Positions 6,346 through 62,250 of a DNA stretch of 64,000 bases are shown here, one piece after another. The stretch is from an uncultured Chlorobiota bacterium (GTDB lineage Bacteria > Bacteroidota > Bacteroidia > Bacteroidales > JAADGE01): contig CAMZKL010000043.1 of the NCBI GenBank assembly GCA_947311255.1, forward strand, positions 1,685 to 65,684. Direction: 5' to 3'. The notes below the pieces were generated by a model. It searched no databases and was not told where the DNA came from. It saw only the letters and a program-made list of their open reading frames with translations. How positions within the stretch are numbered: position 1 is the first letter of the stretch; each line of letters opens with the position of its first letter. The translations under genes and the position numbers were made by a program.

Positions 6346-7875
6346 TTACTCCCATTCAATAGTTGCAGGAGGTTTTGAGCTTATATCGTAAACAACTCTG
6401 TTAATTCCTTTAACTTGGTTAATGATTTTATTAGAGACCTTAGCCAAAAAATCATATGGAAGATGCGACCAATCAGCAGTCATTCCATCAGTTGAACCGA
6501 CTGCTCTAAGTACAACTGCACTTTCATATGTTCTTTCATCTCCCATAACTCCAACTGATTTAACTGGTAATAAAATTGTTGCTGCCTGCCAAACATCTTT
6601 GTATAAACCCGATGTTTTTAATTCATTAATATAAATATTATCTGCATCTTGGAGTATTCTAACTTTCTCATATGTAACATCTCCAAGAATTCTAATTCCT
6701 AAACCCGGACCAGGAAAAGGATGTCTGCCAAGCAGTTCTTTACTTATGCCTAGAGATGCACCAATTCGTCTTACCTCATCTTTAAAAAGAAGTTTTAGCG
6801 GTTCAACAATTTTTAGTTTCATATAATCTGGTAAACCTCCAACATTATGATGAGATTTTATTGTTGCAGATGGTCCTTTAACAGAAATTGATTCAATAAC
6901 ATCAGGATAAATTGTTCCTTGAGCTAGATATTTAACATCTTTTATTTTAGCAGATTCTTTATCAAAAATATCGATAAAAGTATTGCCAATTGCTTTTCTT
7001 TTTGCTTCTGGTTCTATAATACCTTCTAATGCTTTGTAAAATTCATTTTTTGCATCTACTCCTATAACATTTAGCCCCATTCCTTTATATGAATCTAAAA
7101 CTTCAATAAATTCATTTTTGCGTAAAAGTCCGTTATCAACAAAAATACAATATAGATTTTTTCCAATAGCTTTATCTAACAAAACTCCGGCAACAGTAGA
7201 GTCAACTCCTCCAGACAAACCAAGAATAACTTTATCATTTCCAATTTTTTCTTTTAATTCTTTTACAGCAACATCAATAAACGATTCTGAGGTCCAGTCT
7301 TGTTTAATCTTACAAATATTTACAACGAAGTTTTCTAAAATTCTTTGCCCATCGGTAGTATGATAAACTTCTGGATGAAATTGCAGACCAAAAGTTTCTT
7401 CTCCTTTTATTTGAAATGCACCAACTTCAACATCGTCTGTTCCAGCAGTAATTTTAAAATTTTCAGGTATTTCAACAATCGTATCTGCATGGGACATCCA
7501 TACCTGAGTATCAATTTTAATATTTGAAAATAATGGATTTTTTTTATTTATAAACTTCAAATTTGCTCTACCGTACTCTCTATGTTTTGATGGTGCAACT
7601 TTGCCGCCAAAATTATGTGCTAAGTATTGTGCTCCATAGCAAACTCCTAATAATGGTTTATTTCCTTTAATATTTTTCAATTCAGGAACTGGGGCATCTT
7701 TGCTTCTTACAGAAAATGGACTCCCAGATAAGATTACTCCTTTTACTGTTTCATCAGGTTCAGGAAAATGATTATAGGGGTAAACTTCGCAATAAACATT
7801 TAATTCTCGTATCTTTCTAGCAATAAGTCTTGTATATTGAGATCCAAAATCAAGGATTATTATTTTGTTTTGCAT
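6346..7875 (-). CDS. guaA: GMP synthase (glutamine-hydrolysing)
   Basis: 509-aa ORF with GATase N-domain ([23 protein letters not shown]), ATP-pyrophosphatase motif SGGVDS, and C-terminus KPPATIEWE. Confidence 0.97.
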
Positions 7876-17004: not shown

Positions 17005-19134
17005 ATGAAATACACCTTTAATATAGCAATCGTTTTATTTGCATTTCTATTTTCGTGCAAAACAGATACAACAAATAATACTAAATACAATTATCCGGAA
17101 ACAATGAAAGATTCAACTGTTGATGAATATTTTGGAACAAAAGTACCAGATCCATATTCTTGGTTAGAAGACGATAATTCAGAAGCAACTAAGACATGGG
17201 TAAAAAAACAAAATGATTTTACGTTTTCATACTTAAATAAAATACCATTTAAAGATAATATTAAAAAACGTTTAGAAGAAATTTGGAACTATGAAAAAAT
17301 AAGTTCTCCTACTAAAAGAGGAGATTATTATTACTTCTATAAAAATGATGGTCTTCAAAATCAATATGTTTTATACAGAACAAAAGAACTTGGTAAAAAT
17401 GAAGAAGTTTTTCTTGATCCAAATACTTTTTCGGAAGACGGAACTGTCTCAATGAGTGGAGCAAGTTTTACAAAAGATGCCTCAATAGTTGCTTATCAAA
17501 TTTCCGAAGGAGGATCCGATTGGAGAAAAGTTATAATTTTAGATACCCAAAGCAAAAAACAACTTGAAGACACACTTGTTGACATTAAATTTAGCGGACT
17601 TGCTTGGAAAGGAAATGATGGGTTTTACTATAGTAGTTATGACAAACCAAAAGAAGGTAGTACTCTTTCGGGCTTAACACAATATCATAAACTATTCTAC
17701 CATAAATTAGGTACTTCTCAAAAAGATGACAAACTAATTTTTGGAGGAAACAAACAAAAAAGAAGATATTTGGGTGCTTATTTAACAGAAGACCAAAGAT
17801 TTTTAATAATTTCTGCTGCCGAAAGCACTAGCGGTAACGAACTATATTTCAAAGACTTATCTACACCTAACAGTAAAATAACTCCAATCATGGAAGGTTT
17901 TGATAGTGATTTGTATGTAGTAGACAATATAGGAAGCAAATTATTAATAAGCACTAACCATGAAGCTCCTAATAACAAACTAGTAGAAGTTGATGCGTCA
18001 GCACCACAACCAGAAAACTGGAAAGATATAATTCCTGAAACAGAAAACGTTTTATCAATAAACACAGGTGGAGGCTTCCTTTTTGCTTCATATATGGTTG
18101 ATGTAAAATCAAAAGTAATTCAATATGATTATTCAGGGAAAAAAATAAGAGAAATTAAATTACCTGCAATTGGAACAACCTATGGTTTCAGTGCAAAAAA
18201 AGAAGACAAAGAACTATACTATACATTTACCTCTTTTACTTACCCTTCCACAATTTTCAAATACAATATTGAAAAAGGAACTTCTGAAATGTATTGGAAA
18301 CCAAGTATTACTTTTAATCCTGATGATTTTGAAACAAAACAAGTATTCTATAAAAGTAAAGATGGAACAAAAGTACCTATGTTTATAGTGTATAAAAAAG
18401 GTATTGAACTTAACGGAAAAAATCCAACTTATTTATACGCATATGGAGGATTTAACATCAGTTTAAAACCAGGTTTTGATTTAAGAAAACTAGTTTGGAT
18501 AGAAAATGGAGGAATATACGCCCAACCAAATATCAGAGGAGGAGGAGAATATGGAGAAAAATGGCATAAAGCAGGAACAAAAATGCAAAAGCAAAACGTT
18601 TTTGATGATTTTATTGCTGCTGCTGAATATTTATTTAAAGAAAAATATACATCAAGTGATTATCTTGCTATTGCCGGAGGCTCAAATGGAGGCTTATTAA
18701 TTGGGGCAACTATGACTCAACGACCTGATTTAGCAAAAGTAGCATTCCCTGCAGTAGGAGTTATGGATATGCTTAAATACCACAAGTTTACATCCGGAGC
18801 TGGTTGGGCAAGCGATTATGGAACTTCCGAAGATTCCGAAGAAATGTTTAAATACCTCTATAAATACTCCCCAGTTCATGCAATTAAAGAAGGAGTAAAC
18901 TATCCTGCAACTATGGTAACAACTGCAGACCACGACGACAGAGTTGTGCCAGCACATTCTTTTAAATTTATTGCAAATTTACAAGCAAAAGCAAAAAGCA
19001 ATAATCCTCTTTTAATTAGGATTGAAACAAATGCCGGACACGGTGCTGGAACACCTACATCTAAACAAATTGAGCAAGTTGCAGACAGATATGCTTTTGC
19101 TTGGTATAATATGGGAATTAATCCATTTGAATAA
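17005..19134 (+). CDS. Prolyl oligopeptidase (S9A), probable lipoprotein
   Basis: 709-aa ORF with lipobox-like signal LFAFLFSC. N-terminal motif DEYFGTKVPDPYSWLEDD. Catalytic Ser in GGSNGGLL, Asp in ADHDDRVVP, His in NAGHGAG. Confidence 0.93.
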   Translation: MKYTFNIAIVLFAFLFSCKTDTTNNTKYNYPETMKDSTVDEYFGTKVPDPYSWLEDDNSEATKTWVKKQNDFTFSYLNKIPFKDNIKKRLEEIWNYEKISSPTKRGDYYYFYKNDGLQNQYVLYRTKELGKNEEVFLDPNTFSEDGTVSMSGASFTKDASIVAYQISEGGSDWRKVIILDTQSKKQLEDTLVDIKFSGLAWKGNDGFYYSSYDKPKEGSTLSGLTQYHKLFYHKLGTSQKDDKLIFGGNKQKRRYLGAYLTEDQRFLIISAAESTSGNELYFKDLSTPNSKITPIMEGFDSDLYVVDNIGSKLLISTNHEAPNNKLVEVDASAPQPENWKDIIPETENVLSINTGGGFLFASYMVDVKSKVIQYDYSGKKIREIKLPAIGTTYGFSAKKEDKELYYTFTSFTYPSTIFKYNIEKGTSEMYWKPSITFNPDDFETKQVFYKSKDGTKVPMFIVYKKGIELNGKNPTYLYAYGGFNISLKPGFDLRKLVWIENGGIYAQPNIRGGGEYGEKWHKAGTKMQKQNVFDDFIAAAEYLFKEKYTSSDYLAIAGGSNGGLLIGATMTQRPDLAKVAFPAVGVMDMLKYHKFTSGAGWASDYGTSEDSEEMFKYLYKYSPVHAIKEGVNYPATMVTTADHDDRVVPAHSFKFIANLQAKAKSNNPLLIRIETNAGHGAGTPTSKQIEQVADRYAFAWYNMGINPFE

Positions 19135-19154
19135 TCGATAATTATTAAAACTAA

Positions 19155-19189
19155 ATCTGACTTGTTTTAAAACAAGTCAGATTTTTTAT
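19155..19189 (+). terminator. Rho-independent terminator after the first prolyl oligopeptidase
   Basis: Perfect 14-bp palindrome ATCTGACTTGTTTT/AAAACAAGTCAGAT followed by TTTTTATT. Confidence 0.85.
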
Positions 19190-19249
19190 TTGCAAAATAT
19201 TAAACATTTTAAAATAAAATCTTAAATTTACACACTTATAGCCACTCTT

Positions 19250-19436
19250 TTTATCTAAAAAAAGCATGAAACACTCATGACAAATATTCATACACTTAAG
19301 AGAATGGTAATAAACTAGCACATTAATTTCTTGTAGAAAAAGGCAAGAATTCCTATGTGCAAAGCAAAACAATTATTGAAAATATAAACACTCAATCAAT
19401 TTGTTTAATATCAAATAATTATACAAATTAAGACAC
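19250..19436 (+). repeat. Family A upstream module, full copy (A7), ends at the ATG of the second prolyl oligopeptidase
   Basis: In gene sense ...CATGAAACACTCATGACAAA...TTCTTGTAGAAAAAGGCAAGAATTCCTATGTGCAAAGCAAAACAATTATTGAAAATATAAACACTCAATCAATTTGTTTAATATCAAATAATTATACAAATTAAGACAC-ATG. It aligns along its whole length with the reverse complement of 33799-33965. Confidence 0.85.
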
Positions 19437-21578
19437 ATGAACCACCTAATAACTATTTATATAATATATTTCTTTTTATTCTTTTCTATTAAAAATAGTT
19501 ATAGTCAAAATATTGATTTTAAATACCCAAAAACTTTTAAAGATACTACAAAAGAGGAATATTTTGGAACAAAAGTAAATACTCCTTTCTCTTGGTTAGA
19601 AGACGATAAATCCGAGAAAACAAAAAAATGGGTAAAATCTCAAAACAACATAACTTTTTCGTACTTAAATAAAATTCCATTTAAGAATAAAATAAAAAAA
19701 AGGCTTGAAGATATTTGGAATTATGAAAAAGTACAGGCACCAGTAAAAATTGGTAAATATTTTTATTTCTATAAAAACAATGGTTTACAAAATCAGAATA
19801 TTTTATATCGTTCAAAAGAACTACAAGGCAATGATATTGAAATTTTTTTAGACCCAAATACATTTTCAAAAGACGGAACAACTTCAATGAAATCTACAAG
19901 TTTTTCTTATGATGGCTCATTAATGGCATATCAAATTTCCGAAAAAGGCTCAGACCAAATGAAAGTTATTATTTTAGATACTAAAACTAAAAAGCAAGTT
20001 GATGACACATTAAAAAACATAAAATTCAGTAATATTTCATGGAAAGGAAATGAAGGTTTTTATTACAGTAGTTATTTCAATCCGAATAATTTCAATACTT
20101 TTTCAAACTCTTCAAAATATCATAAATTATATTTCCATAAAATTGGAAGCTCTCAGAAAAACGACAAACTTATTTTTGATGGAAATAAAAATAAAATAAG
20201 ATATATTAGAGCCTACTTAACAGAAGATCAAAGATTTCTAGTTATAAATGTACGGAAAAGAATTTCGGGGAACAAACTATATATCAGAGATTTACATTAT
20301 TCTAACAGCAAACTAATTCCTTTGATTCAGAATTTTGACAATGATGTTGTTATTATTGACAATCAAGATACAAGATTATTAATTTACACAAATTATAATG
20401 CCCCAAATTACAGACTTATTGAAGTTGATGCAAATGCAATCTCAATTAATAATTGGAAAGATGTTATTCCCGAAAGAAATAATGTTTTGAGTATATCAAA
20501 AGCAGGAGGATACCTTTTTGCAACATATTTGGTTGATGTTAAATCAAAAGTTATTCAATATGACTATGACGGAGAAAAAATTAGAAACATAGAATTACCG
20601 GCACCCGGAACAGTTAAAGGGTTTAATGCCAAAAAGGATGAGCATTTTTTATATTATACATTTACATCTTATACATACCCTTCAACAATTTTTAAATATA
20701 ATATTGAAAATGGATTAACTGAAATGTTTTGGAAACCAAATATTGATTTTAATCCGGAAAATTATGTAACAAAACAAGTTTTTGTTAATAGCAAAGATGG
20801 AACAAAAATACCGATGTTTATTGTTTATAAAAAAGGAATAAAACTAAACGGAAAAAACCCTACATACTTATTTGGCTACGGAGGTTTCAATATAAGTTTA
20901 AAACCATCATTTATAACTCAAAATATTGTTTGGTTAGAAAATGGCGGAATTTATGCCGAAGCAAACCTTAGAGGAGGCGGAGAATACGGAAGAGAATGGC
21001 ATAAAGCAGGAACAAAAATGCAAAAACAAAACGTTTTTGATGATTTTTTTGCAGTTGCTGAATTTTTAATAGAAAAAAAATATACATCTAATAATTTTCT
21101 TGCAATTGCAGGACCCTCAAATGGAGGCTTATTAATTGGAGCAACAATAACCCAAAGACCAAAATTAGCAAAAGTTGCATTACCTTCTGTTGGAATATTA
21201 GACATGTTAAAATATCAGAATTATACCGGAGGTGCCGGTTGGGCAAGTGAATATGGTACATCAGAAGAATCTGAGAAAATGTTTAAATATCTTTTAAACT
21301 ATTCCCCTGTTCATTCGGTAAAAGATGGAATTGATTATCCTGCTACACTAATTTTAACTGCAGACCACGACGATAGAGTTGTTCCTGCTCATTCTTTTAA
21401 ATTTGCTGCTGAATTACAAGCAAAAGCAAAAACTAACAACCCAATTTTAATTAGAATTGAAACAAATGCAGGACATGGTGCAGGAGGCGGAACTCCAACA
21501 TCTAAAATAATTCAACAAATTGCCGACAAATATGCATTTGCATGGTATAATATGGGAATAAATCCATTTAAAAATTAA
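19437..21578 (+). CDS. Prolyl oligopeptidase (S9A), paralog with non-lipoprotein signal peptide
   Basis: 713-aa ORF collinear with 17005-19134 (EEYFGTKVNTPFSWLEDD, GPSNGGLL, ADHDDRVVP, NAGHGAGGG). Signal MNHLITIYIIYFFLFFSIKNSYSQ has no Cys. Confidence 0.93.
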   Translation: MNHLITIYIIYFFLFFSIKNSYSQNIDFKYPKTFKDTTKEEYFGTKVNTPFSWLEDDKSEKTKKWVKSQNNITFSYLNKIPFKNKIKKRLEDIWNYEKVQAPVKIGKYFYFYKNNGLQNQNILYRSKELQGNDIEIFLDPNTFSKDGTTSMKSTSFSYDGSLMAYQISEKGSDQMKVIILDTKTKKQVDDTLKNIKFSNISWKGNEGFYYSSYFNPNNFNTFSNSSKYHKLYFHKIGSSQKNDKLIFDGNKNKIRYIRAYLTEDQRFLVINVRKRISGNKLYIRDLHYSNSKLIPLIQNFDNDVVIIDNQDTRLLIYTNYNAPNYRLIEVDANAISINNWKDVIPERNNVLSISKAGGYLFATYLVDVKSKVIQYDYDGEKIRNIELPAPGTVKGFNAKKDEHFLYYTFTSYTYPSTIFKYNIENGLTEMFWKPNIDFNPENYVTKQVFVNSKDGTKIPMFIVYKKGIKLNGKNPTYLFGYGGFNISLKPSFITQNIVWLENGGIYAEANLRGGGEYGREWHKAGTKMQKQNVFDDFFAVAEFLIEKKYTSNNFLAIAGPSNGGLLIGATITQRPKLAKVALPSVGILDMLKYQNYTGGAGWASEYGTSEESEKMFKYLLNYSPVHSVKDGIDYPATLILTADHDDRVVPAHSFKFAAELQAKAKTNNPILIRIETNAGHGAGGGTPTSKIIQQIADKYAFAWYNMGINPFKN

Positions 21579-27169: not shown

Positions 27170-28204
27170 ATGGACGATAAGAACTTGATAATAGAATACT
27201 TAAAGAAAAATCCCTATTCATCATCAAAAGAAATTTTTGAAGGTTTTGGAAGACAAAAAAGTCTTGCAACGGTAAAACGATTATTATCAAAACTAATACA
27301 AGAACAATTAATTGTATCGACGGGTAAGGGAAAATCAACACGATACAATCTATCTCCCGTTTATAAATTGTTTGAACCCATTGATATTGAAAAATATTAT
27401 GAAAAAGAGATTGACGAAAGAATAATAAAAGAAAATTTTAATTTTTCGATAATCTCTGAAATCTTACCGAAAACAAATTTATTTACAGAAAATGAACTTA
27501 CGAAATTAAATGAACTACAAGAAAATTTTACAAATAATATTTCAGAATTAAGTGGGTTAGAATTTAAAAAGGAATTGGAAAGACTTGCCATTGATTTGAG
27601 CTGGAAATCATCACAAATTGAGGGAAATACATATTCTCTTTTGGAAACAGAAAAATTATTAAAAGAAAAAGAAACAGCATCGGGAAAAACAAAAGAAGAA
27701 GCGGCAATGTTGTTAAACCACAAAGAAACTATTGATTTTATTGTTGAAAATCCTAATTATTTAATTCATTTAACTGTTTCTAAAATTGAAGATATTCATA
27801 GTATTTTAACAAAAGAACTTGCTGTTGACAGAAACATCCGAAAAAGAAGGGTTGGTATATCAGGAACAAATTACAAACCGATTGATAATGAGTTTCAGAT
27901 AAAAGAAGCTTTAAAAGGAATGTGCGATTTGATAAATAAGAAAGAGATTATTTTTGAAAAGGCTTTATTATCATTGATTTTGATTTCATATATTCAACCA
28001 TTTGTCGATGGAAACAAGCGTACAGCAAGAATTGTAAGTAATGCAATATTAATAAATCATAAATATTGTCCAATATCATTTAGAACTGTTGACAGTATTG
28101 ATTATAAAAAAGCAATGCTTCTGTTTTATGAGCAAAATAATATTTCAAGTTTTAAGAATATATTTATTGAACAATTTGAATTTGCAGTAAACACTTACTT
28201 TTAA
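27170..28204 (+). CDS. Fic-domain protein with N-terminal winged-helix and degenerate active-site motif
   Basis: 344-aa ORF. N-terminal wHTH-like region (EYLKKNPYSSSKEIFEGFGRQKSLATVKRLLSKL), inhibitory-helix motif SSQIEGN, and Fic motif region IQPFVDGNKRTAR (Gln where the catalytic His is expected). Confidence 0.85.
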   Translation: MDDKNLIIEYLKKNPYSSSKEIFEGFGRQKSLATVKRLLSKLIQEQLIVSTGKGKSTRYNLSPVYKLFEPIDIEKYYEKEIDERIIKENFNFSIISEILPKTNLFTENELTKLNELQENFTNNISELSGLEFKKELERLAIDLSWKSSQIEGNTYSLLETEKLLKEKETASGKTKEEAAMLLNHKETIDFIVENPNYLIHLTVSKIEDIHSILTKELAVDRNIRKRRVGISGTNYKPIDNEFQIKEALKGMCDLINKKEIIFEKALLSLILISYIQPFVDGNKRTARIVSNAILINHKYCPISFRTVDSIDYKKAMLLFYEQNNISSFKNIFIEQFEFAVNTYF

Positions 28205-29047: not shown

Positions 29048-30502
29048 TTACTCCATTCCGAAAGCATAATATGCAATATTTCCATCAGGATATATTCCTT
29101 GCACATAAACTCCTCCATGAATATTTTTCAATATCTTTTCTATTTCTTTTGGAGAAGAAACTTCTTTTCTATTTATATGAGTAATTATAAATCCATTTCT
29201 AACTCCTGCTGCCATTAATTTACCTGCCTGTAAATCAGCAACTTCCACTCCATTTTTAATGCCAAGTTTCTCCTTTTTATTATCAGATAGTTCAACAAAA
29301 CTTGCACCAAGAACATCAACTATATTTTTATTTACAACATCTGTTGTGCCTAAACTGTTTTTTAGTTCAACTAAAAATTTCTTTGTTTTATTATCTCTAA
29401 GAACCCAAACATCAATTTTATCGCCAGGGCTAAATCTACTAATATTTTCTTGAAGTTCAGAGCTTTTTTCAATTGTTGTATTATTAATTTTAATAACAAT
29501 ATCTCCTTCTTCCAAACCGGCATCTTCTGCTGCACTGCCTTTATTTACATTTACAATATAAACTCCTTTTGGTTTATCCATATTTAATTCATCTGCAAGT
29601 TTTGCATCTACATCTTTAATATTTACACCAAGCAAGGCTCTTTGAACAGTTCCAAATTCTTTTAAGTCTGAAACAACTTTTTTAACTATTGTAACAGGAA
29701 CTGCAAAAGAATAACCGGTGTAAGAACCTGTTTGTGAAGCAATTGCAGTATTAATTCCTACCAATTCACCTTTTGTGTTCACAAGTGCACCTCCACTATT
29801 TCCGGGATTTACAGCAGCATCTGTTTGAATAAAAGATTCAATTGCATACTTCTGTTTTTGTCTTAATAAATTAATATTTCTTTCTTTTGCACTAACAATC
29901 CCTGCTGTTACAGTAGAAGTTAAATTAAAAGGATTACCAACTGCAAGAACCCACTCGCCTACTTTTAGGTTATCAGAATTTCCATATGTTACTGTTGGCA
30001 AATCTTTTGCTTCAATTTTTACTAATGCAATATCTGTTGCAGGATCTCTACCAATGAGTTTTGCATTATAAGTTCTATTATCATTTAAAACAATCTCAAT
30101 ATCTTTTGCATTCTCAACAACATGGTTATTTGTAACTATGTAACCATCACCAGAAATAATTACACCTGAACCTGATGCCATTTGCGGCATTCTTTGTCCA
30201 TAAGGACTTCCTCCTCCAAAAGGATTTCCAAAAAAGAAATCTTGTATTGAGGGTTGTCCAATATTTTGTTGAGTATAAGTAGTTTTTACATGAACAACTG
30301 CATTTAAAGTTTTCTCTGCTGCAATTGTAAAATCCGGTAAAGTTGTAACTATGCTTTCTTGAATATTATTTACAGGAAGAATATTATTAAGTTCTGCTGA
30401 TTTTTGGATGTTTTTTTCTCCAAAATAGTAATTAATTCCGTATGCAGTAAGTCCTCCTACTACTGCAACCAAAAAAAGGCTTAAAAATTTTCTTATTTTC
30501 AT
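29048..30502 (-). CDS. htrA: Do/DegP/HtrA-family periplasmic serine endoprotease with two PDZ domains
   Basis: 484-aa ORF with an N-terminal TM/signal. Triad contexts TNNHVV, DIALVKI and GNSGGALV, then two PDZ-like segments. Confidence 0.93.
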   Translation of the reverse strand: MKIRKFLSLFLVAVVGGLTAYGINYYFGEKNIQKSAELNNILPVNNIQESIVTTLPDFTIAAEKTLNAVVHVKTTYTQQNIGQPSIQDFFFGNPFGGGSPYGQRMPQMASGSGVIISGDGYIVTNNHVVENAKDIEIVLNDNRTYNAKLIGRDPATDIALVKIEAKDLPTVTYGNSDNLKVGEWVLAVGNPFNLTSTVTAGIVSAKERNINLLRQKQKYAIESFIQTDAAVNPGNSGGALVNTKGELVGINTAIASQTGSYTGYSFAVPVTIVKKVVSDLKEFGTVQRALLGVNIKDVDAKLADELNMDKPKGVYIVNVNKGSAAEDAGLEEGDIVIKINNTTIEKSSELQENISRFSPGDKIDVWVLRDNKTKKFLVELKNSLGTTDVVNKNIVDVLGASFVELSDNKKEKLGIKNGVEVADLQAGKLMAAGVRNGFIITHINRKEVSSPKEIEKILKNIHGGVYVQGIYPDGNIAYYAFGME

Positions 30503-30700
30503 GTGTCTAAATTTTTATAATTAATTGATATTAAATAAGTTGCTTGTATTTTTGTTGTTAATAATATTTATTTTGTTCTGCACATAAGAACACCCGTATT
30601 TGAGCATTTTAAATATATTTATTTGTGAAACTACATTAGTAATTACTCTCTTTATTAGAGAGAAAGTTCCTTTGGGTGTTAACGTTTGGAATATAGTTTC
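30503..30700 (-). repeat. Family A upstream module (A1), abuts the htrA start codon
   Basis: The plus strand reads CATGTGTCTAAATTTTTATAATTAATTGATATTAAATAAGTTGCTTG...TTTTGTTCTGCACATAAGAACACCC...CCTTTGGGTGTT. Homologous to 33799-33965 and 60100-60289. Confidence 0.8.
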
Positions 30701-30790
30701 TTATGTTTAAAATATTATAATTAACTGACATTAAACAGTTTAAATGTAATTTACATTTAAAATATTTATGGTGGAGGTCTCATCTTAATA
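30701..30790 (-). repeat. Family A, decayed partial tandem unit (A1b)
   Basis: TTATGTTTAAAATATTATAATTAACTGACATTAAACAGTTTAAATGTAATTTACATTTAAAATA matches the proximal part of A5 (TATAATTAACTGATATTAA) and of A2 (GTGATTTACATTTAAAATA). Confidence 0.55.
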
Positions 30791-31013
30791 AAATTTTAGT
30801 TCTTAATAAATAAATTAAACGTTATTTTTTATAAATTAATATACGAATAAATTGTAATATAAAAAGACATAATAAAATTTAGAATTACTTGTATAAAAAA
30901 ACAATTTGTTTGCCATATTTAAAAATACTGACAATTTTTCAGTTTTAAAAATAGAACGGATATTTTTACAGGAAGTTACATTAAAAGATGTAATTTTGCA
31001 TAAATATTTTTTT

Positions 31014-31793
31014 ATGCTTAAATTTTATAAATACCACGGTGCCGGAAATGATTTCATTTTAATTGATAACTTTTCGGAAAATTCTGTTAATCTTTCAATC
31101 TCTCAAATTAAAAAAATGTGTGATAGACATTTTGGAATTGGTGCTGACGGATTAATGCTGTTAAAAAAACATTCTATTTTTGATTTTGAAATGGATTATT
31201 ATAATTCTGATGGAAGTGGAGGAACTATGTGCGGAAACGGAGGAAGATGCATTGTTGCTTTTGCTAAAAGATTAGGTATAATTACTAATTACGCAAAGTT
31301 TATTGCTTCGGACGGGGAACATGAAGCCTTTATTGATAAAAATAATATTGTAAAACTTAAGATGAATGATGTTAATAGAATTTCAAATTTTAATAATGAC
31401 TATTTATGTTACACCGGCTCACCACATTACATTAAATTTTGCAACAATATAAAAGAAAAAAATATTTTTCTTGAAGGACAAAAAATAAGATATAGTAATG
31501 AATTTAAAAATGAAGGAATAAATGTTAATTTTATTAAAATTAAAAATAATAAAACATTAAATATAAGAACCTACGAGAGAGGTGTTGAAGATGAAACTCT
31601 TGCCTGCGGAACAGGTGCTGTTGCTACTGCACTAACTTTTGCAAATAAAAATAATGAACTATCTGGCGAATATACAATTATCGCAAGAGGAGGAATTTTA
31701 AAAGTAAGTTTTACAAAAAAACAAAATAAATTTCAAGATATTTGGTTAACTGGCCCTGCAAAATTTGTTTTTGAGGGATTTTTTCATTTTTAG
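31014..31793 (+). CDS. dapF: Diaminopimelate epimerase
   Basis: The ORF-track start at 30906 is TTG. ATG at 31014 gives the canonical MLKFYKYHGAGNDFILID. Two catalytic Cys contexts: GTMCGNGGRC and ETLACGTGAVA. Confidence 0.9.
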   Translation: MLKFYKYHGAGNDFILIDNFSENSVNLSISQIKKMCDRHFGIGADGLMLLKKHSIFDFEMDYYNSDGSGGTMCGNGGRCIVAFAKRLGIITNYAKFIASDGEHEAFIDKNNIVKLKMNDVNRISNFNNDYLCYTGSPHYIKFCNNIKEKNIFLEGQKIRYSNEFKNEGINVNFIKIKNNKTLNIRTYERGVEDETLACGTGAVATALTFANKNNELSGEYTIIARGGILKVSFTKKQNKFQDIWLTGPAKFVFEGFFHF

Positions 31794-31805
31794 GATTTCT
31801 AAGTT

Positions 31806-32333
31806 CTAAAATTTAAATGATTCAAAAAAAGTTTTAATATTTTTCGTTTTTTCTTTTTCATTGCTAATAACAATTAATTGAAACTGAACTTTATTAATTA
31901 TAAAAACACGATAAAAAACATACATATTTTTGTCATCCAAAGATAAAAAAGCTTCTGCTCCTTTTATTTTATTATATTTTATCTTTTTACTATTTTGAAT
32001 TGTTCCTTTTATTCCTGTTTCAAAAGATTGCAAAGAAGCATTCATATATATCTCATTATCAGAAGATACAACAGGATTTGAATGTTCCGTATATTTTAAC
32101 ATATAAACTTCATTTCCCAACAATGCTCTATATAATTCTGTTTTAAGACCTTCATTATCGGAACTTTCTTCCATTTTATATTCAGCAGGGAAATTTATTG
32201 AGAAACTTGGCTTTTCTATTTTTAATTTAAAACTTGTATTATTTGTGCTTACATTAGTTTTTTGAGCACTTAAACTAAAACTAAGAAGTATTGAAACTAG
32301 TAATATCAAACTTATGTTAAATTGTTTTTTCAT
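31806..32333 (-). CDS. Secreted hypothetical protein (175 aa)
   Basis: Signal peptide MKKQFNISLILLVSILLSFSLSAQ, no recognisable motif. Start codon preceded by Family A unit A2. Confidence 0.65.
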   Translation of the reverse strand: MKKQFNISLILLVSILLSFSLSAQKTNVSTNNTSFKLKIEKPSFSINFPAEYKMEESSDNEGLKTELYRALLGNEVYMLKYTEHSNPVVSSDNEIYMNASLQSFETGIKGTIQNSKKIKYNKIKGAEAFLSLDDKNMYVFYRVFIINKVQFQLIVISNEKEKTKNIKTFFESFKF

Positions 32334-32541
32334 GTGTCTTTCTTTTTTTTTGCAACTTTCCAGAGTTTATACGCAGTTACGTGATTTACATTTAAAATAA
32401 TTGTGTTGTTCCGAACATAGGAGCACTTGTTTTTTTCTGCAAGGAATCAATGTGCTGAATAATAGTCGTGCCCTTTGGTGTCAAATTTTATGTCGTTGGG
32501 GTTTCTTCTTTTCTTATTTTCATATACAAATATACTATTTT
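32334..32541 (-). repeat. Family A upstream module (A2), fills the whole cinA-to-175-aa-gene spacer
   Basis: CATGTGTCTT...GTGATTTACATTTAAAATAATTGTGTTGTTCCGAACATAGGAGCACTTGTTTTTTTCTGCAAGGAATCAATGTGCTGAATAATAGTCGTGCCCTTTGGTGT.... The distal end carries TTTTCTTATTTTCAT (32509-32523), identical to the htrA 5' end at 30488-30502. Confidence 0.8.
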
Positions 32542-33798
32542 TTATTTCTCTTCATAATATCCTAATATAAACTTTCTTAGCATATCTAACGATTTTGAAC
32601 TTGCAAATCTTACATTCAGTAGTCTTCTTTTTCCAAAAGTATATTTCTTGGAAATTATTTTATTCTTTCCAGCAATAGCAATCCAAGTTGTTCCAACAGG
32701 TTTTTCTATTGTTCCACCACCAGGTCCGGCAATTCCGGAAATTGCAATGGAATAGTCAGTATTAAAAATTTCTCTTTGTCCTTTTGCCATAGCTTCAACA
32801 ACTTCTTTGCTTACAGCTCCGTATTTTTCAAGAATATTTTTTGAAACATTAAGCTGTTTATTTTTAATTTCGTTTGAATATGCTACAACTCCTCCTTTAA
32901 AATAGTTAGAACTTCCTGGAACAGATGCTATTAATCTTGAAACGTTTCCTGCTGTACAACTTTCTGATATTGAAAGTGTTGTCTCATTTTTAATTAATAA
33001 TTCCCCTATTCTGTTTTCTAAAAACTTATCTCCATATCCGAAAATATATTTTCCAATAATACTTTTTAATTTTTCAATCTCAAAATTAATAATTCCCTCT
33101 GCTTTTTTCTTTTGCTCACAAATCATGCTCAATCTCAATCGTATTCTTTCAGGAGACGGAAGATATGCTAATTTTATTTTATTATTAAGATTTTGTTCCC
33201 AATCAGATAACTTTTCCGCTAAAAATGCTTCTGGAATTCCATAAGTTAAAACTGTTTTATGAATTATATTTGGCAATTTCATCTTTTTTTTAAGTTCGGG
33301 AATTACTTCTCTTTCAACTAATTCTTTCATTTCAAAAGGAACGGCAGGCAAAGAAACAATTATAGTTTCATATTTCTCAAACCACATTCCAGGAGCTGTG
33401 CCATTTTTATTTCTTAAAACTTTACAATTTATGGGAATTTCTGCCTGTTTTCTATTTCTTTCGTTATTTAGTTCAAAACCTTTTGAGTGGATAAAGTTTG
33501 TAACATCTTCCAGAACTTCTTTATTTTCTTTTAGCTCAGAATTAAAATATTCTGCAAGAACTTGTTTTGTAATATCATCTTCTGTTGGTCCTAATCCTCC
33601 GGTTATTATTATTAAGTTAACTTCATTAATTATTGAATCTAAAACACTAATTATCTGTTCTTTATCATCACCTACTGTTGTTATTCTTCTAATTTCAAAA
33701 CCGATATTATTTATTTGCTCTGCAATCCATTGAGAATTTGTATCAGTAATTTGACCTATTAAAATTTCATCTCCAATAGTTATTATATCTGCTTTCAT
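32542..33798 (-). CDS. cinA: CinA-family protein (MoCF-binding domain + PncC-like NMN deamidase domain)
   Basis: 418-aa ORF with N-terminus MKADIITIGDEILIGQITDTNSQWIA and a C-terminal domain containing SISESCTAGNVS and ISGIAGPGGG. Confidence 0.9.
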   Translation of the reverse strand: MKADIITIGDEILIGQITDTNSQWIAEQINNIGFEIRRITTVGDDKEQIISVLDSIINEVNLIIITGGLGPTEDDITKQVLAEYFNSELKENKEVLEDVTNFIHSKGFELNNERNRKQAEIPINCKVLRNKNGTAPGMWFEKYETIIVSLPAVPFEMKELVEREVIPELKKKMKLPNIIHKTVLTYGIPEAFLAEKLSDWEQNLNNKIKLAYLPSPERIRLRLSMICEQKKKAEGIINFEIEKLKSIIGKYIFGYGDKFLENRIGELLIKNETTLSISESCTAGNVSRLIASVPGSSNYFKGGVVAYSNEIKNKQLNVSKNILEKYGAVSKEVVEAMAKGQREIFNTDYSIAISGIAGPGGGTIEKPVGTTWIAIAGKNKIISKKYTFGKRRLLNVRFASSKSLDMLRKFILGYYEEK

Positions 33799-33965
33799 AT
33801 GTCTAAAATTATATAATTAATTAATATTGAGCAAATTGATTGTGTCTTTATATTTATAATAATTGTTTTGCTCTGCACATAGGAACACTTGCATTCTTCT
33901 GCAAGTAATCTGTATACTAAGTTATAGTCATTTACTTGACTGTTTATGTTTTATCATGGGTGTTT
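33799..33965 (-). repeat. Family A upstream module (A3), abuts the cinA start codon
   Basis: CATATGTCTAAAATTATATAATTAATTAATATTGAGC...TTGTTTTGCTCTGCACATAGGAACACTTGCATTCTTCTGCAAGT...ATCATGGGTGTTT. The 30-mer at 33863-33892 is identical to 60165-60194. Confidence 0.85.
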
Positions 33966-34131
33966 CATGTGTCTAAGTTTATCTAATTAATTTATGTTAA
34001 ATAAGTTGCTTATGCGTTCATATTTATAATAATTATGTGTTCTTCACATTGGAACACTTGCATTTTTCGGCAAGAAATCAATGTACTAGATAATAGTCAA
34101 TATTTTAGTTATGAAACTTTCATGTTTGTTG
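33966..34131 (-). repeat. Family A unit (A4) in tandem with A3, with no gene attached
   Basis: Starts CATGTGTCTAAGTTTATCTAATTAATTTATGTTAAATAAGTTGCTTATG and continues ...GTGTTCTTCACATTGGAACACTTGCATTTTTCGGCAAGAAATCAATGTACTAGATAATAGTC.... Its ATG is followed by only AAA CAC CCA TGA. Confidence 0.8.
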
Positions 34132-34143
34132 TGCTTAATTTTT

Positions 34144-34172
34144 CTAAAAAACCGAACAAAATTGCTCGGTTT
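34144..34172 (-). terminator. Terminator after the fpr operon
   Basis: The minus strand reads AAACCGAGCAATTTTGTTCGGTTTTTTAG. 6-bp stem AACCGA/TCGGTT followed by a T-run. Confidence 0.65.
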
Positions 34173-34239
34173 CTTAATTAATTATATTTTATCTTAATTT
34201 ATATTTTTAAGAATTGCTTATTATTCTAATTAAAAATTT

Positions 34240-35052
34240 TTATCCCCAACTTTCTATATGAATTTGCCCTGGTGATTTCTTTTTGTGTTCAGTAAATCCG
34301 TCAGCTTCAAGATGTTCAAACATACTTTCAACCATTTTAGGGTTTCCACAAAGAAAAACATGAGTATTTTCGGGAGTTGGTTTACATCCCAAAGCATCTT
34401 CTACAACACCTGCAGCCCACATATCTTGAACAAATCTGTTATCTCCAATCCATTTAGACTCTTCTTTGTGTGCTTCCAAAACAGTGGGTATATATTTAAA
34501 TCTATCAGAAATATTTTGCAAAAGCATTAGTTCAGATCGATAACCTAAATCCCAAGAATTTGCAGCTCCATGAATAACAACAATTTTTCTTGTATTATTA
34601 CTCATAATATTTGATCTTAACATACTTACATAAGGAGCAACTCCTGTTCCTGTTGCAATAAGAACAATATTATTATCCTGCGGCACTTGTTCCAAAGTAA
34701 ACATTCCGACCATACGTTTTCCTAATTCAATTCTGTCGCCGTTTTTAAGATTAAACAATCTTGGAGTTAATGCTCCCGAACGTACAAGAGAAATATAAAA
34801 TTCAATAAATTCTTTTGATTTTGATGAAGATGCAATTGAATAAACTCTTTTAATCATTTTGCCATCTTCGTATTCTTCGGCATCAGGTGCTGCCCCTTCA
34901 ACTCTTTCAGCGGTTGCTGGCAATGCTAATGCGGCAAATTGCCCTGACAAGAAAGTAGGTAATTCCCACCCATCCGGTGAAATTCTAAATATCTTCATTG
35001 AAGGCGAAACGTCAATAATTTGAGATACTACTGCATTTAATTTATTATCCAT
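34240..35052 (-). CDS. fpr: Ferredoxin/flavodoxin-NADP+ reductase (Fpr type)
   Basis: 270-aa ORF with FAD-binding RVYSIASS, NADP-binding LIATGTGVAPY and FLCGNPKMV. TAATG 1-nt overlap with the upstream gene. Confidence 0.8.
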   Translation of the reverse strand: MDNKLNAVVSQIIDVSPSMKIFRISPDGWELPTFLSGQFAALALPATAERVEGAAPDAEEYEDGKMIKRVYSIASSSKSKEFIEFYISLVRSGALTPRLFNLKNGDRIELGKRMVGMFTLEQVPQDNNIVLIATGTGVAPYVSMLRSNIMSNNTRKIVVIHGAANSWDLGYRSELMLLQNISDRFKYIPTVLEAHKEESKWIGDNRFVQDMWAAGVVEDALGCKPTPENTHVFLCGNPKMVESMFEHLEADGFTEHKKKSPGQIHIESWG

Positions 35053-59493: not shown

Positions 59494-60099
59494 TTATTTA
59501 ATAGATTTTAATGATTTAACTATCTCTCTTACCGGCATTCTACGTGTATAATCTTTGTTAAAATATCCATTGATAATTTTTTTATCTGTTCCAATAATAT
59601 ATGTTGCGGGTACGGGTAATGCGTTATCCGAATTTTTACTTGATTTTTTTAAATTTATACCTTTGAGTTTATAAAAGAAATGAGCAAATCCGGAAACATG
59701 CCAAGTTACTTTATAATCATCCATTATTTTATGCCCTTCATCATAAACAATACTAAAATTTGCATTAGTTTTTTTAATAGTTTCATCAATATAATAACTA
59801 CTTTCAGGTGTTATTGCAATTATTTTTGCTCCTAAATCAGTAATCATAGACAAGGAATCAGAAAGATCATTCATATATAAATTGCAATGCTTACACCATT
59901 CACCTCTGTAAAAAATAAGTACTACCGGCTGTTTATTAAGGATTTGATATAAATCAATTTTTCTATTATAATTATCTTTAACAGAAAAATTATGAACTTT
60001 TGTCCCGTTTGTAAGTTTTTCTTGTGCATTTATTGATAAGGAAAAGAAAAGAATTATAAAAAATGCTGTAAATTTAATAATTTTTATTGAATATTTCAT
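59494..60099 (-). CDS. Secreted thioredoxin-fold redoxin (AhpC/TSA-like)
   Basis: 201-aa ORF with signal peptide ...FFSLSINAQ and motif FYRGEWCKHCNLY (CxxC). Confidence 0.8.
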   Translation of the reverse strand: MKYSIKIIKFTAFFIILFFSLSINAQEKLTNGTKVHNFSVKDNYNRKIDLYQILNKQPVVLIFYRGEWCKHCNLYMNDLSDSLSMITDLGAKIIAITPESSYYIDETIKKTNANFSIVYDEGHKIMDDYKVTWHVSGFAHFFYKLKGINLKKSSKNSDNALPVPATYIIGTDKKIINGYFNKDYTRRMPVREIVKSLKSIK

Positions 60100-60289
60100 A
60101 TGAATATATTTATATAATTAACTGATATTAAGTAAGTTACCCGTACTTCCATTATTGATAATATTTGTTTTGCTCTGCACATAGGAACACTTGCTTTGTT
60201 CTGCAAATAATATGTATGCTTTGTTATGTCATGCCCTTGGGTGTAAAAATCTTTATCTTGGGTGTTTAGCTTCACTGAGCCTTTGGATT
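60100..60289 (-). repeat. Family A upstream module (A5), abuts the redoxin start codon
   Basis: CATATGAATATATTTATATAATTAACTGATATTAAGTAAGTTACC...TTGTTTTGCTCTGCACATAGGAACACTTGCTTTGTTCTGCAAATAAT...CTTGGGTGTTTAGC. Confidence 0.85.
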
Positions 60290-60340
60290 CATGTGTCTAA
60301 AAAACTTATAAATTTAAATGTATAAAGTTAAAAATTAATT
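60290..60340 (-). repeat. Family A, start of a further decayed tandem unit (A5b)
   Basis: CATGTGTCTAAAAAACTTATAAATTTAAATGTATAAAGTT resembles the proximal 40 nt of A1 and A4. Confidence 0.5.
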
Positions 60341-60358
60341 TGATTCAATTAAAAGGAC

Positions 60359-60514
60359 ATGAAAGAATTTGATATTTTTTTGAGTTATTACTTAATTCGT
60401 TCGTTAGAAAATACTTGGATATCAAATTATAAAAATGCTTACTTTATATCATTAATTTTAATCTATGCAGTTTTAATATTTGCCCTAAAAAAGGAATCAT
60501 TGCCAGACTCCTGA
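60359..60514 (+). CDS. Possible 51-aa single-TM small protein
   Basis: Below the ORF-track cutoff. ATG 60359 to TGA 60512-60514 gives MKEFDIFLSYYLIRSLENTWISNYKNAYFISLILIYAVLIFALKKESLPDS. The hairpin at 60495-60551 overlaps its stop. Confidence 0.25.
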   Translation: MKEFDIFLSYYLIRSLENTWISNYKNAYFISLILIYAVLIFALKKESLPDS

Positions 60515-60558
60515 GGAACTCTAAAAACTCAGAAACCATATGGCAATGATTATTTTGT
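60495..60558 (+). terminator. Long compound hairpin followed by a T-rich tract
   Basis: Outer 11-bp stem AATCATTGCCA / TGGCAATGATT enclosing inner CTGAG / CTCAG, followed by ATTTTGTT. Confidence 0.5.
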
Positions 60559-60855
60559 TACTAATTTGTTAATTAATATAAATTCTAAAAAATATTTATT
60601 AAAAATTAATAATGTCTTTACAAAGATAAAATGTTTTAAAACAATGTTGTGTAACTAATATCACATTTGATTGCAAAAAAGTAAATATTTTTGATTCTAC
60701 AAAATTGTATTTAAATAAATTGCACTTTTTTTAATACAAAACATTATTTTCAAACAAATATTCTATAATGAAATAATATTAGCAAGCATTTTGAAAACCA
60801 AAGATATACCTATAATCTAGCGGATTTATTTTTTGCACAACATAGTTATCTTAAA

Positions 60856-60909
60856 TACAAACACAAGAGTAACTTATTTAATATCAACAAATTAAACAAC
60901 CTTACTCAC
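60856..60909 (+). repeat. Family A, proximal-part-only copy (A6), abuts the ATG of the beta-barrel gene
   Basis: ACACAAGAGTAACTTATTTAATATCAACAAATTAAACAACCTTACTCAC-ATG matches the gene-sense end of A1, CAAGCAACTTATTTAATATCAATTAATTATAAAAATTTAGACAC-ATG. Confidence 0.6.
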
Positions 60910-62250
60910 ATGAGAAACGGACTTTTTCTAATTTTATTATCTTCAATATCAACTATTTTTTTTGCTCAAGAAACCGACACCTTAAATAAGAATAAAACTG
61001 GTTTCGGATTAGGTTTTGTTCCAATTTTTGCTTTTGATTCTGATGTTGGTTTAAAAACTGGCATTGCTGCAAATATATTTCATTATGGTAATGGTGAAAA
61101 TTATCCAAAATATGAACATTCCTTACTTTTAAAATGGTACAGAACAACAAAAGGAAGTAGATTAACACAAGTTATTTATGATTCTGATAAAATTATTGAA
61201 AATGTAAGACTTACTTCTGAGTTTAGTTATATTACTGACCAAACACTTGGATTTTATGGGTTTAATGGAAGTAAATCATTTTACAATACAAATTATGAAA
61301 TTCAATCAGAAAATAATACTAATTATATTTCAAAAATTTATTATAAGTATCAAAGAAAAATGCTACGATTTAAAATCGATTTTCAATATCCATTCAAAGG
61401 AACTAAGTTCAAATGGTTAATTGGATTTTCGCATTATAATATTATGATTCAAAGTGTTGACAGGGATAAAATAAACAGTCATAAATCAACTAAAGTTTTA
61501 TTGCCTGACACAGCAACGCTATATGATAAATATGTTAAATGGGGAATTATAAAAAACTCTGAAAAGAATGGCGGAAAAATAAATTATATAAAATCCGGCA
61601 TAATATACGACAGCAGAGACAATACAAGCAATTGTAATTCAGGTATTTGGACAGAAATTTTACTTTTATATGCACCTTCATTTTCAGCAAACAAATCTAA
61701 TTTTGGGAAACTATTATTAACTCATCGCCAATATTTCCCTTTAAAACTAAACAAACTTACTTTTGCATATAGATTAAGTTATCAAACAAAACTTTGGGGA
61801 GAAATACCTTATTATATGTTACCTTTTTTCATTGATTCAAAAAAAACAGAAGATGGTTTAGGTGGTGCTAAAAATTTAAGAGGTATTTTAAGAAATAGAA
61901 TAGTTAGTAACGGATTTGTAAATGGAACTATGGAATTAAGGTGGAAATTTTGGTCATTAAAATTTATAAAACAAGATTTTTATCTCTCGTTGAATTGTTT
62001 TACTGACGTGGCTACTGTAACAGAAGAGTATAAGTTTAATAGTGATCTAGTGAAATCTGACTTTGGATTTTCAGAAGAATCTAATTTAAAAACCATAAAT
62101 TACTCTAACAATAAATTCCATTTTACATATGGGGTTGGAGTTTACATAGTAATGAACAAAAACTTTGTAATTTCAACTGATTATGGAAGAGCTGTTTATA
62201 ATCAAGATGGAAAATCTGGCATATATGTAGGTCTTGATTTTATATTTTAA
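60910..62250 (+). CDS. Outer-membrane beta-barrel protein (Omp85/surface-antigen-like)
   Basis: 446-aa ORF with signal peptide MRNGLFLILLSSISTIFFAQ, beta-strand periodicity, and a C-terminal aromatic GIYVGLDFIF. Confidence 0.65.
   Translation: MRNGLFLILLSSISTIFFAQETDTLNKNKTGFGLGFVPIFAFDSDVGLKTGIAANIFHYGNGENYPKYEHSLLLKWYRTTKGSRLTQVIYDSDKIIENVRLTSEFSYITDQTLGFYGFNGSKSFYNTNYEIQSENNTNYISKIYYKYQRKMLRFKIDFQYPFKGTKFKWLIGFSHYNIMIQSVDRDKINSHKSTKVLLPDTATLYDKYVKWGIIKNSEKNGGKINYIKSGIIYDSRDNTSNCNSGIWTEILLLYAPSFSANKSNFGKLLLTHRQYFPLKLNKLTFAYRLSYQTKLWGEIPYYMLPFFIDSKKTEDGLGGAKNLRGILRNRIVSNGFVNGTMELRWKFWSLKFIKQDFYLSLNCFTDVATVTEEYKFNSDLVKSDFGFSEESNLKTINYSNNKFHFTYGVGVYIVMNKNFVISTDYGRAVYNQDGKSGIYVGLDFIF

Follow-up and report, generated by a model that had tools for sequence, protein, structure and literature searches.

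Small non-autonomous repeats of bacteria are treated in part in two reviews (PMC3184786, PMC10969869). Here we describe what is very probably such a family, Family A, whose units of 120–195 nt stand immediately upstream of the start codons of unrelated genes in a 64,000-nt stretch of DNA (positions 1,685 to 65,684 of contig CAMZKL010000043.1, assembly GCA_947311255.1, from an uncultured Chlorobiota bacterium), hereafter the window, which has a G+C content of 27.9%. MITEs (miniature transposable elements bounded by inverted repeats) and the Correia/CREE, RUP, ERIC and BOX elements are likewise short, free of open reading frames (ORFs), dispersed, mostly intergenic, amplified in particular lineages and divided into subfamilies; MITEs and similar elements also have a short direct repeat at their junctions and can alter the 5′ untranslated regions (UTRs) of their neighbours. 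Family A differs from MITEs in having no terminal inverted repeats and in its strict gene orientation, and, where MITEs insert at TA or at random sites, it is found at the start-codon hexamer ATGAAA, with the split start codon restored.

Two groups of insertion sequences come closest in manner. IS110-family elements recombine by means of a bridge RNA and a DEDD transposase, and IS492 has a 5-bp core, CTTGT. Family A resembles the IS110 family in its lack of terminal inverted repeats, its sequence- and orientation-specific insertion and the short core at both junctions; in that family, too, a non-coding module of ~150–250 nt can move without the transposase, and precise excision is possible. 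The ssr9 module of ISPpu9 (IS110 family) is a non-coding module (PMC12288879). However, no DEDD transposase, bridge RNA or circle junction was seen in the sequence examined here, IS110 targets are REP, attC or similar sequences rather than start codons, and the Family A target has variable flanks, contrary to what one would expect of a fixed bridge-RNA guide. IS200/IS605-type elements, PATEs, REP/RAYT and IStrons also lack terminal inverted repeats, carry a hairpin and insert one way; IS200/IS605 insertion occurs 3′ of a short specific sequence that the right end resembles, as may be the case in Family A. Yet IS200/IS605 elements have subterminal hairpins at both ends, whereas Family A has one central imperfect hairpin, occupies either strand of a 64-kb stretch (two divergent copies are separated by just 480 nt) and was accompanied by no TnpA or TnpB in the sequence examined. 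Membership in either family cannot be claimed for Family A.

More distant likenesses are found among other repeats and leaders. MIRU, reportedly described by Supply et al. in 1997, are gene-oriented, end at the stop and start codons of flanking genes and form tandem copies, but they are 40–100-bp minisatellites within operons, with small ORFs overlapping both neighbours, whereas Family A units are ~174 nt long, follow native 5′ UTRs and begin with a miniature upstream ORF (uORF) that stops after 2–6 codons. The SXT integrative and conjugative element (ICE) in the 5′ end of prfC, and phages and ICEs in the 3′ ends of tRNA genes, also replace the gene end that they displace; these are large, carry their own integrase and occupy one site per genome, in contrast to a 174-nt passenger at dozens of sites. 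The riboswitch and leader families of Rfam share with Family A the placing of homologous non-coding DNA upstream of several genes, but Family A has no Rfam match, shows no covariation and is not kept at orthologous genes. REP/BIME sequences are 20–40-nt GC-rich palindromes, often in inverted pairs, as opposed to 174-nt AT-rich units in direct tandem. By these comparisons Family A would be a small non-autonomous mobile repeat with an unusual target.

We consider it very likely that Family A units are small, non-coding, non-autonomous mobile elements that insert site- and orientation-specifically, with ATGAAA as the core of the reaction, and that they are, in all probability, gene-sparing genomic parasites and not a regulatory leader shared among genes. 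To the initial annotation of the window this was one option among several (an intergenic element that multiplies by duplication and brings its own start context for translation), and it gains support from filled and empty sites, from turnover, from subfamilies with shared termini and from the way in which copies cluster by genome.

The six units of that annotation were made into a profile that was searched against the window with nhmmer, and a profile of 21 copies was also used later. The first profile returned six full copies (E-values 1e-44 to 3e-30) and two partial ones (Table 1). The proposed homology upstream of five genes is therefore real, as the profile finds exactly these copies. All window copies are oriented in the sense of the downstream gene, and every gene-proximal copy has its 3′ end, ...TTTAGACAC, directly before the ATG of a long ORF. 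The 30-mer noted at 33863–33892 and 60165–60194 is indeed identical at the two places and has a three-mismatch copy at 19343–19372 (chance expectation, none); a pattern search with this conserved core gave 5 matches against 0.07 expected. Alignment of 21 copies yielded an AT-rich consensus of 174 nt, and more than 30 copies were found in about 360 kb of sequence examined. As the initial annotation had stated, no credible ORF was found in the units, and an inverted-repeat search of four copies detected only internal AT-rich palindromes and no terminal inverted repeats. An antisense open frame (LFCSAHRNTCF...) running through the core in 15 of 22 copies was rejected: it lacks a consistent start, and the reading frame of its distal half changes from copy to copy. 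Each element has three direct copies of the motif ACAC(CC)ATGA, of which two lie near its left end and the third at its right end, and an internal motif, TTTTGACACCC...CATGAC, is similar to both termini, although this is a lead only.

The first delimitation of the units needed some correction. Their ends at the ATG stood, but the distal boundaries did not, since units start at displaced start codons. The supposed proximal-only fragment before the Omp85-like gene proved to be a near full-length copy (60768–60912) with a 29-nt deletion that takes out the conserved core, as comparison with the intact orthologue (L029 9831–10003) shows. Of two decayed partial units, that at 30701–30790 was upheld by a weak profile match and by the displaced htrA start, while that at 60290–60340 shrank to a 12-nt remnant of a 3′ terminus at 60293–60304.

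We scanned the core against one genome per species and against metagenomes, and fetched contigs via relatives of HtrA, CinA and the Omp85-like protein. The genome scan matched a single organism, the uncultured Chlorobi bacterium TAG_MAG_00004 (GCA_947311445.1), at 11 loci, the metagenome scan added two copies, and viral contigs scanned with the core gave no match. TAG_MAG_00004 (loci L028 and L029 among others) is syntenic with the window at 91–96% identity (about 94%); a strain 99.6% identical to the window (L023, GCA_054023215.1) and two more distant sister lineages (L015/L027 and L024/L026) were also compared. The strain carries the same units, with 7 differences in 963 element nt versus 78 in 20,495 other nt (not significant). 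The element is missing at htrA in L024 and L028, as in L014 and L016, lineages without the family at that gene, and it is missing at cinA in L026 and L027; the family thus appears confined to a narrow clade. Sorting domains of type IX secretion and the nearest protein relatives assign the window itself to an uncultured lineage of Bacteroidota, with metagenome-assembled genomes that bear the label 'Chlorobi' or 'Bacteroidales'.

Three comparisons of filled and empty sites identify the module as an insertion. At htrA, L015 is filled and its sisters L024/L025 (81–85% identical) are empty: L024 reads ...AATAATAAAAAG ATG AAAAAAATATTAAGT, and L015 reads ...ATATAAAAATAG ATG AACACCC(unit)AATAGACAC ATG AAACACCCATGA(unit)TTTAGACAC ATG AAAAAAATATTAAGT, with the native intergenic DNA kept upstream of the units (77% identity to L024). 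At the gene for a 179-aa protein, L027 holds a 143-nt unit between ...AAAAATATT ATG and ATG AAAAAA..., where the empty L026 reads ...AAAAATATT ATG AATAAT... Finally, the window is filled at htrA and TAG_MAG_00004 is empty: L028 reads ...AAAATTTTATTGAC ATG AAAATAAGA, and in the window the same native leader leads to the ATG at 30781–30783, 278 nt of units and then ATG AAAATAAGA, the block 30503–30780 being missing from the orthologous site. In all three comparisons the direct repeat ATG(AAA) is present at both junctions of the filled site and in single copy at the empty one.

Insertion thus strands the original start codon at the element's 5′ edge and leaves the gene with an ATG at the 3′ edge. 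About half of the copies have ATGAAACAC at the 5′ edge and most others are one base off ATG (ACG, ATA, ATT or AAG), as would be expected of a displaced start codon in decay. Translation from the displaced starts in the window would meet an in-frame stop within 2–6 codons, the element consensus being ATG AAA CAC CCA TGA. The overall layout, native 5′ UTR – ATGAAA – CACCC...(element)...TTTAGACAC – ATGAAA – rest of gene, would fit equally an insertion 3′ of ATGAAA by an element whose right end is also ATGAAA, and a duplication of 3–6 nt. The variable base in front of the displaced ATG led us to reject an origin by restriction and ligation at CATG.

Position and orientation are kept with great strictness. 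Gene-proximal copies stand before 25 genes (21 distinct, in at least four genomes or metagenomes), and all of them end at the start ATG in gene sense, so that the rules proposed from the window held when tested on the copies of relatives; none was found at other intergenic positions or in reverse orientation in the window and related loci, where two copies were cut off by contig or locus ends. The start is ATGAAA, at present or ancestrally, in 19 of the 21 served genes; in the window such starts are found in 12 of 50 genes overall and in 8 of the 45 (about 18%) without an element. The Omp85-family gene of the window begins ATGAGA, but its TAG_MAG_00004 orthologue begins ATGAAA, indicating mutation from an ancestral ATGAAA. 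One TAG_MAG_00004 copy (L002) occupies a site that is not a start, ...GAA GAC ATG AAA, which belongs to a 127-aa ORF and lies four codons short of its stop. The ORF now terminates in MKHP*, with the original MKKQ* lying beyond the element. The target would accordingly seem to be the sequence ATGAAA itself, which in practice means a gene's Met-Lys start.

Turnover is rapid enough to be seen between close relatives. Occupancy differs between the window and TAG_MAG_00004 at three of five shared sites: htrA has two units in the window and none in TAG_MAG_00004, cinA has two subfamily A units against one C unit, and the gene for the 175-aa secreted protein has one A unit against one C unit of 121 nt. 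The three subfamilies, A of ~174 nt, B of ~145 nt and C of ~120 nt, have common termini, ATGAAACACCC.../...TTTTAGACACATG, around different interiors, and mosaics occur. The gene-proximal htrA copy is one of these, its 5′ two-thirds being subfamily-B-like (compare unit 1 of L015) and its 3′ third subfamily A. Copies group by genome, with the ERZ28505417 pair 84%, a metagenome pair 79% and the TAG_MAG_00004 copies 80–93% identical; the cinA-proximal copy has its closest relative in another genome (L002, 87%). Since every insertion leaves a new target at its 3′ junction, tandem arrays are to be expected, and in five of five such arrays the gene-proximal copy is the better preserved. At cinA the ATG at 33966–33968 (uORF MKHP*) serves as both the 5′ ATG of the proximal copy and the 3′ ATG of the distal one, and the first ~30 nt of the distal copy are orthologous to the 5′ end of the TAG_MAG_00004 subfamily-C unit.

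The comparisons show that the element integrates one way at ATGAAA, which afterwards stands at both junctions. The old start codon is left at the 5′ edge, where a stop carried in frame by the element would end translation from it, and the gene retains an intact ATGAAA and its whole coding sequence at the 3′ edge, so that insertion spares the gene. Later insertions can stack at the same start codon by using the target re-created at the 3′ junction. Movement, we propose, would depend on a trans-acting site-specific recombinase or transposase that takes ATGAAA as its crossover or target core, presumably encoded elsewhere in the genome and acting in the manner of IS110/IS492-type or IS200/IS605-type enzymes. 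Transcription of the served genes would start mainly from native upstream promoters and read through the element.

Several points weigh against this proposal. Mobility is something that we infer from comparative evidence only, and every sequence comes from metagenome-assembled genomes or metagenome assemblies. Pfam searches of every window ORF and a regular-expression search for the same termini more than 1 kb apart revealed no autonomous partner, and neither a transposase or recombinase nor a longer element with those termini was found in the window or in about 300 kb of related loci. Codons 2 and 3 differ in the L026/L027 pair (AAT AAT when empty, AAA AAA when filled), so the exact limits of the inserted DNA are not fully settled. 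The core stays the best-conserved part even in copies that were not selected for it, which hints at some function; it could be a candidate binding site of the mobilising enzyme. Lastly, the window has 11–14 intergenic ATGAAA that are not starts, as against 12 ATGAAA starts, and none of the former is occupied, so that the hexamer alone does not account for the distribution of the elements. Possibly the target is wider than the hexamer, or real start sites are recognised in another way, or deletion spares a copy only where it is tied to an essential ATG. A bolder combined proposal, in which the elements recognise working translation starts by means of a hitherto undescribed and possibly RNA-guided recombinase and the core is perhaps a portable regulatory site, we regard as unlikely. 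If start sites are indeed recognised, these would be the first prokaryotic mobile elements with the start codon as their safe harbour, and if the core is portable and regulatory (for example, a target of RNA-guided transcription), the element would rewire the expression of the genes on which it lands.

The initial annotation had favoured a portable promoter with a long 5′ leader, defining a regulon, possibly one of envelope stress. In such a regulon htrA, the redoxin, the Omp85-like gene and others would be under one regulator, for example an extracytoplasmic function (ECF) sigma factor, and the modules would be retained for their regulatory effect. That all copies abut start codons in gene sense agrees with such a regulon, as do a 25–30-nt core highly conserved 70–95 nt upstream of the ATG and the presence of ECF sigma genes in these genomes (L027 among them). 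Many served genes also encode exported or envelope proteins, which bears out part of the statement that they mostly do; but cytoplasmic products are served too (CinA, an acyltransferase-like protein, a thioesterase-like protein and a glycosyltransferase), and the excess is better explained by the target, since ATGAAA(AAA) is how a Met-Lys-Lys signal peptide starts and signal peptides in this genome begin in that way. The module is, moreover, missing from the same genes in relatives 81–96% identical, one copy (L002) lies within the 3′ end of an ORF, and the Omp85 copy of the window has lost the core while its ORF is still intact.

Rates of change and promoter signals also speak against a regulon. 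Between the window and TAG_MAG_00004 the orthologous redoxin copies are 75.5% identical (n = 196) and the Omp85 copies 82.1% (n = 140), compared with 86.2% at four-fold degenerate sites (n = 780) and 93.8% in the native intergenic DNA between the two copies (60346–60767). The elements would thus be drifting at or above the neutral rate next to an old promoter region that is constrained, which suggests that transcription still begins in native DNA. The Bacteroidota TAnnTTTG box had one exact match in 21 copies, with no position at one mismatch or fewer in six or more copies, and sigma-70-like matches numbered 22 against 25.8 in shuffles; this test, which covers the TAnnTTTG and sigma-70-like boxes, is partial, as ECF-type boxes are not defined for this clade. 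With the module absent in relatives, its copies unconstrained, no conserved -33/-7 promoter and the core dispensed with at one gene, we judge a regulon very improbable.

There is a slighter chance still that a mobile element carries a core that also works as a regulatory site, for example a guide target of a sigma-E/dCas12f system or a host-factor site. The core (GCAAGTGTTCCTATGTGCAGAGC) is the slowest-evolving part of the module, 27 of 30 positions being identical in the orthologous redoxin pair as against 75.5% for the whole copy. RNA-guided sigma-E/dCas12f transcription is specific to Bacteroidetes and uses 14-nt targets with a 5′-G, with transcription starting 46 bp downstream of the target-adjacent motif (PMC12259090). 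The Family A core begins with G ~93 nt upstream of the ATG, a geometry that would give a leader of ~47 nt. Against a regulatory role, the window contains neither a dCas12f/TnpB-like gene nor a guide-RNA copy of the core, nothing in the sequence examined supports RNA-guided transcription, one copy has lost the core but kept its ORF, subfamily C has no core at all, and conservation may reflect binding of a transposase or the recent origin of the copies.

It is more doubtful again that no dedicated mobility is involved, and that local tandem duplication has combined with ectopic gene conversion through the ATGAAAAAA microhomology shared by 5′ gene ends. Tandem arrays and mosaic units are seen, and interiors differ at orthologous sites with orthologous 5′ ends, as conversion would have it. 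Yet single units have been inserted precisely at unlinked genes with a junction repeat of only 3–6 nt, and RecA-dependent conversion needs far more homology than six nt; termini are identical across subfamilies with unrelated interiors, and 21 unrelated genes all show the same strict orientation and junctions.

As to RNA structure, the consensus folds at -27 kcal/mol (z = -2.96 versus shuffles) into a single, imperfect central hairpin of 19 pairs, with the core as its 3′ arm, between unstructured, AT-rich ends. RNAalifold on the copies kept only 5 pairs, with no compensatory change; counted over the central hairpin, 77.3% of cells pair versus 76.5% when shuffled, and 66–89 of 500 shuffles reach the covariation measures. 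The 5′ arm is free to vary and the 3′ arm is fixed, and subfamilies B and C are without most of the hairpin. Although the consensus folds better than shuffles, a structured cis-regulatory RNA common to several mRNAs (a riboswitch, a thermometer or the leader target of a small RNA), the other reading offered initially, is the least probable of all, given the free 5′ arm, the hairpin's loss in B and C, the lack of covariation, the absence of the module from orthologous genes (htrA, cinA) across relatives, and an Rfam search (gathering thresholds over the whole window; E-value mode over 30400–34300) that matched no unit and so agreed with the first impression that this is not a named RNA family. 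Terminator-like hairpins are weak, on the antisense strand and present in only two of four copies. A bias in replication strand could not be judged from the GC skew of the window, which is weak, tracks gene strand and is uninformative.

If mobile, gene-sparing elements are the right explanation, Family A follows a selfish-DNA strategy not previously described in bacteria: it lands on a start codon, supplies a fresh one and silences the old. Our literature search found no description of a miniature element that targets and restores start codons. Such a strategy would explain how a compact genome can hold about one repeat per 8–10 kb without destruction of genes. Translation initiation in Bacteroidota is not led by Shine-Dalgarno sequences, and mobile DNA by which dozens of genes receive new 5′ UTRs at once would be raw material for regulatory evolution in this phylum. 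The family also points to a recombination activity that is specific for site and orientation and has a core of 6 nt, of potential interest to builders of genome-engineering tools, and it carries a warning for annotation, as what looks like a regulon may be no more than homologous 'leaders' in front of unrelated genes for exported proteins.

Table 1. Family A units and associated features. Positions are those of the window unless a related locus (L) is named.
Feature	Position	Strand	Six-unit nhmmer match	Evidence and remarks
Subfamily-A copy, second prolyl oligopeptidase gene	19266..19439	+	19253-19436	nhmmer 1.6e-39; 5.7e-35 with 21-copy profile
Displaced start and mini-uORF MKHS* of this copy	19266-19268	+		Working ATG 19437-19439
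Gene-proximal htrA copy	30500..30693	-	30503-30693 (E 3e-30)	Both profiles; ends TTTAGACAC, then ATG 30502-30500
Older decayed or short unit distal to htrA	30694..30783	-	30705-30773 (partial)	Weak profile match 30703-30771
Displaced original htrA start, uORF MRPPP*	30781-30783	-		L028 empty-site alignment: native 5′ UTR directly upstream of 30783
Divergent subfamily-A copy, 175-aa secreted protein gene	32331..32507	-	32334-32528	Displaced start decayed to AAG, 32505-32507
Gene-proximal subfamily-A copy, cinA	33796..33968	-	33799-33968	Both profiles
Most conserved core, gene sense GCAAGTGTTCCTATGTGCAGAGCAAAACAA	33863..33892	-		Top information content in 21-copy alignment
Distal tandem copy without a gene of its own	33966..34123	-	33969-34132	Displaced original cinA start 34121-34123, uORF MKVS*
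Subfamily-A copy, AhpC/TSA redoxin gene, 5′ end ~22 nt longer	60097..60292	-	60100-60290 (E 1e-44)	ATG 60290-60292, uORF MNPKAQ*
3′-terminal remnant of older unit, TTTTTTAGACAC, directly upstream of redoxin copy	60293..60304	-		Direct sequence reading
Subfamily-A copy, Omp85-family gene	60768..60912	+	60784-60908 (partial)	Profile match 2.3e-07; displaced start 60768-60770, uORF MK*
Subfamily-B units	L015 9687-9829; L027 11439-11584			
Subfamily-C units	L028 6928-7046; L028 8335-8455; L029 18025-18153			

Pfam searches of the window genes found an HtrA/Do protease, CinA, an AhpC/TSA redoxin and two tandem prolyl oligopeptidases, confirming the names first given to htrA, cinA, the redoxin and the second prolyl oligopeptidase; no Pfam family matched the proteins of 175 and 446 aa, and relatives of the latter carry Omp85. 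The two prolyl oligopeptidase genes (17005–21578) are paralogues about 75% identical in DNA, and both products begin Met-Lys/Asn; the element is found only at the second, the first (ATGAAATAC) being an unoccupied target. The Omp85-family gene (60910–62250) encodes an intact protein of 446 aa in the window and in TAG_MAG_00004, and in the 86.5-kb contig of GCA_054023215.1 it is split into products of 246 and 144 aa, by a frameshift (a pseudogene) or an assembly error. The dapF ORF (30906–31793) has its mechanical start at a TTG (30906), and the canonical DapF N-terminus, MLKFYKYHGAGNDF, begins at the ATG at 31015, which makes the htrA–dapF intergenic region about 512 nt rather than 403.

Four copies have a 5′ end longer by ~20 nt (AAYCCRAAGGCTCAG...), at 60270–60292, 30684–30700, L029 18025–18050 and L029 9349–9371. 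All four directly follow the 3′ terminus of another unit, so the true left end of a master element may exceed the common form. Upstream of cinA a terminator-like hairpin, AACCGAGCAATTTTGTTCGGTTTTTT (34140–34180), ends ~25 nt upstream of the displaced start and is conserved in TAG_MAG_00004. A terminator that close implies that expression of cinA before insertion relied on read-through or on a promoter region of very small extent, and the two units there may matter more than those at other genes.

One TAG_MAG_00004 copy (L005 7850–8000) lies ~110 nt downstream of a tRNA gene (7664–7737) and its terminator, in a locus that ends before the 3′ end of the copy. The same genome has, at L029 11993–14143, an extra gene that is not in the window, for a 716-aa peptidyl-prolyl isomerase with a type IX secretion system (T9SS) sorting domain, between a Crp-like gene and a radical-SAM gene. 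The 60 nt upstream of it end ...AAAAATAGACAC then ATGAAAAAT and contain CCTAATGTATGAG, and this gene may carry a further unit, decayed or of a different subfamily. At L014 4749–5135 there is a 128-aa reverse-transcriptase (RVT_1) fragment, with no link to the element family seen.

In the native DNA between the redoxin and Omp85 genes a 53-codon ORF from 60359 is not conserved, TAG_MAG_00004 having a stop at codon 10. The same region contains a long hairpin (60494–60556), AATCATTGCCA...CTGAG-loop-CTCAG...TGGCAATGATT followed by a run of T, which might encode a small RNA or terminate transcription in both directions. Other window-encoded proteins, unrelated to the element, include one with a TseH-like type VI effector domain (57230–57916) and one with a Fic domain (27170–28204), and T9SS sorting domains are present among the window proteins.

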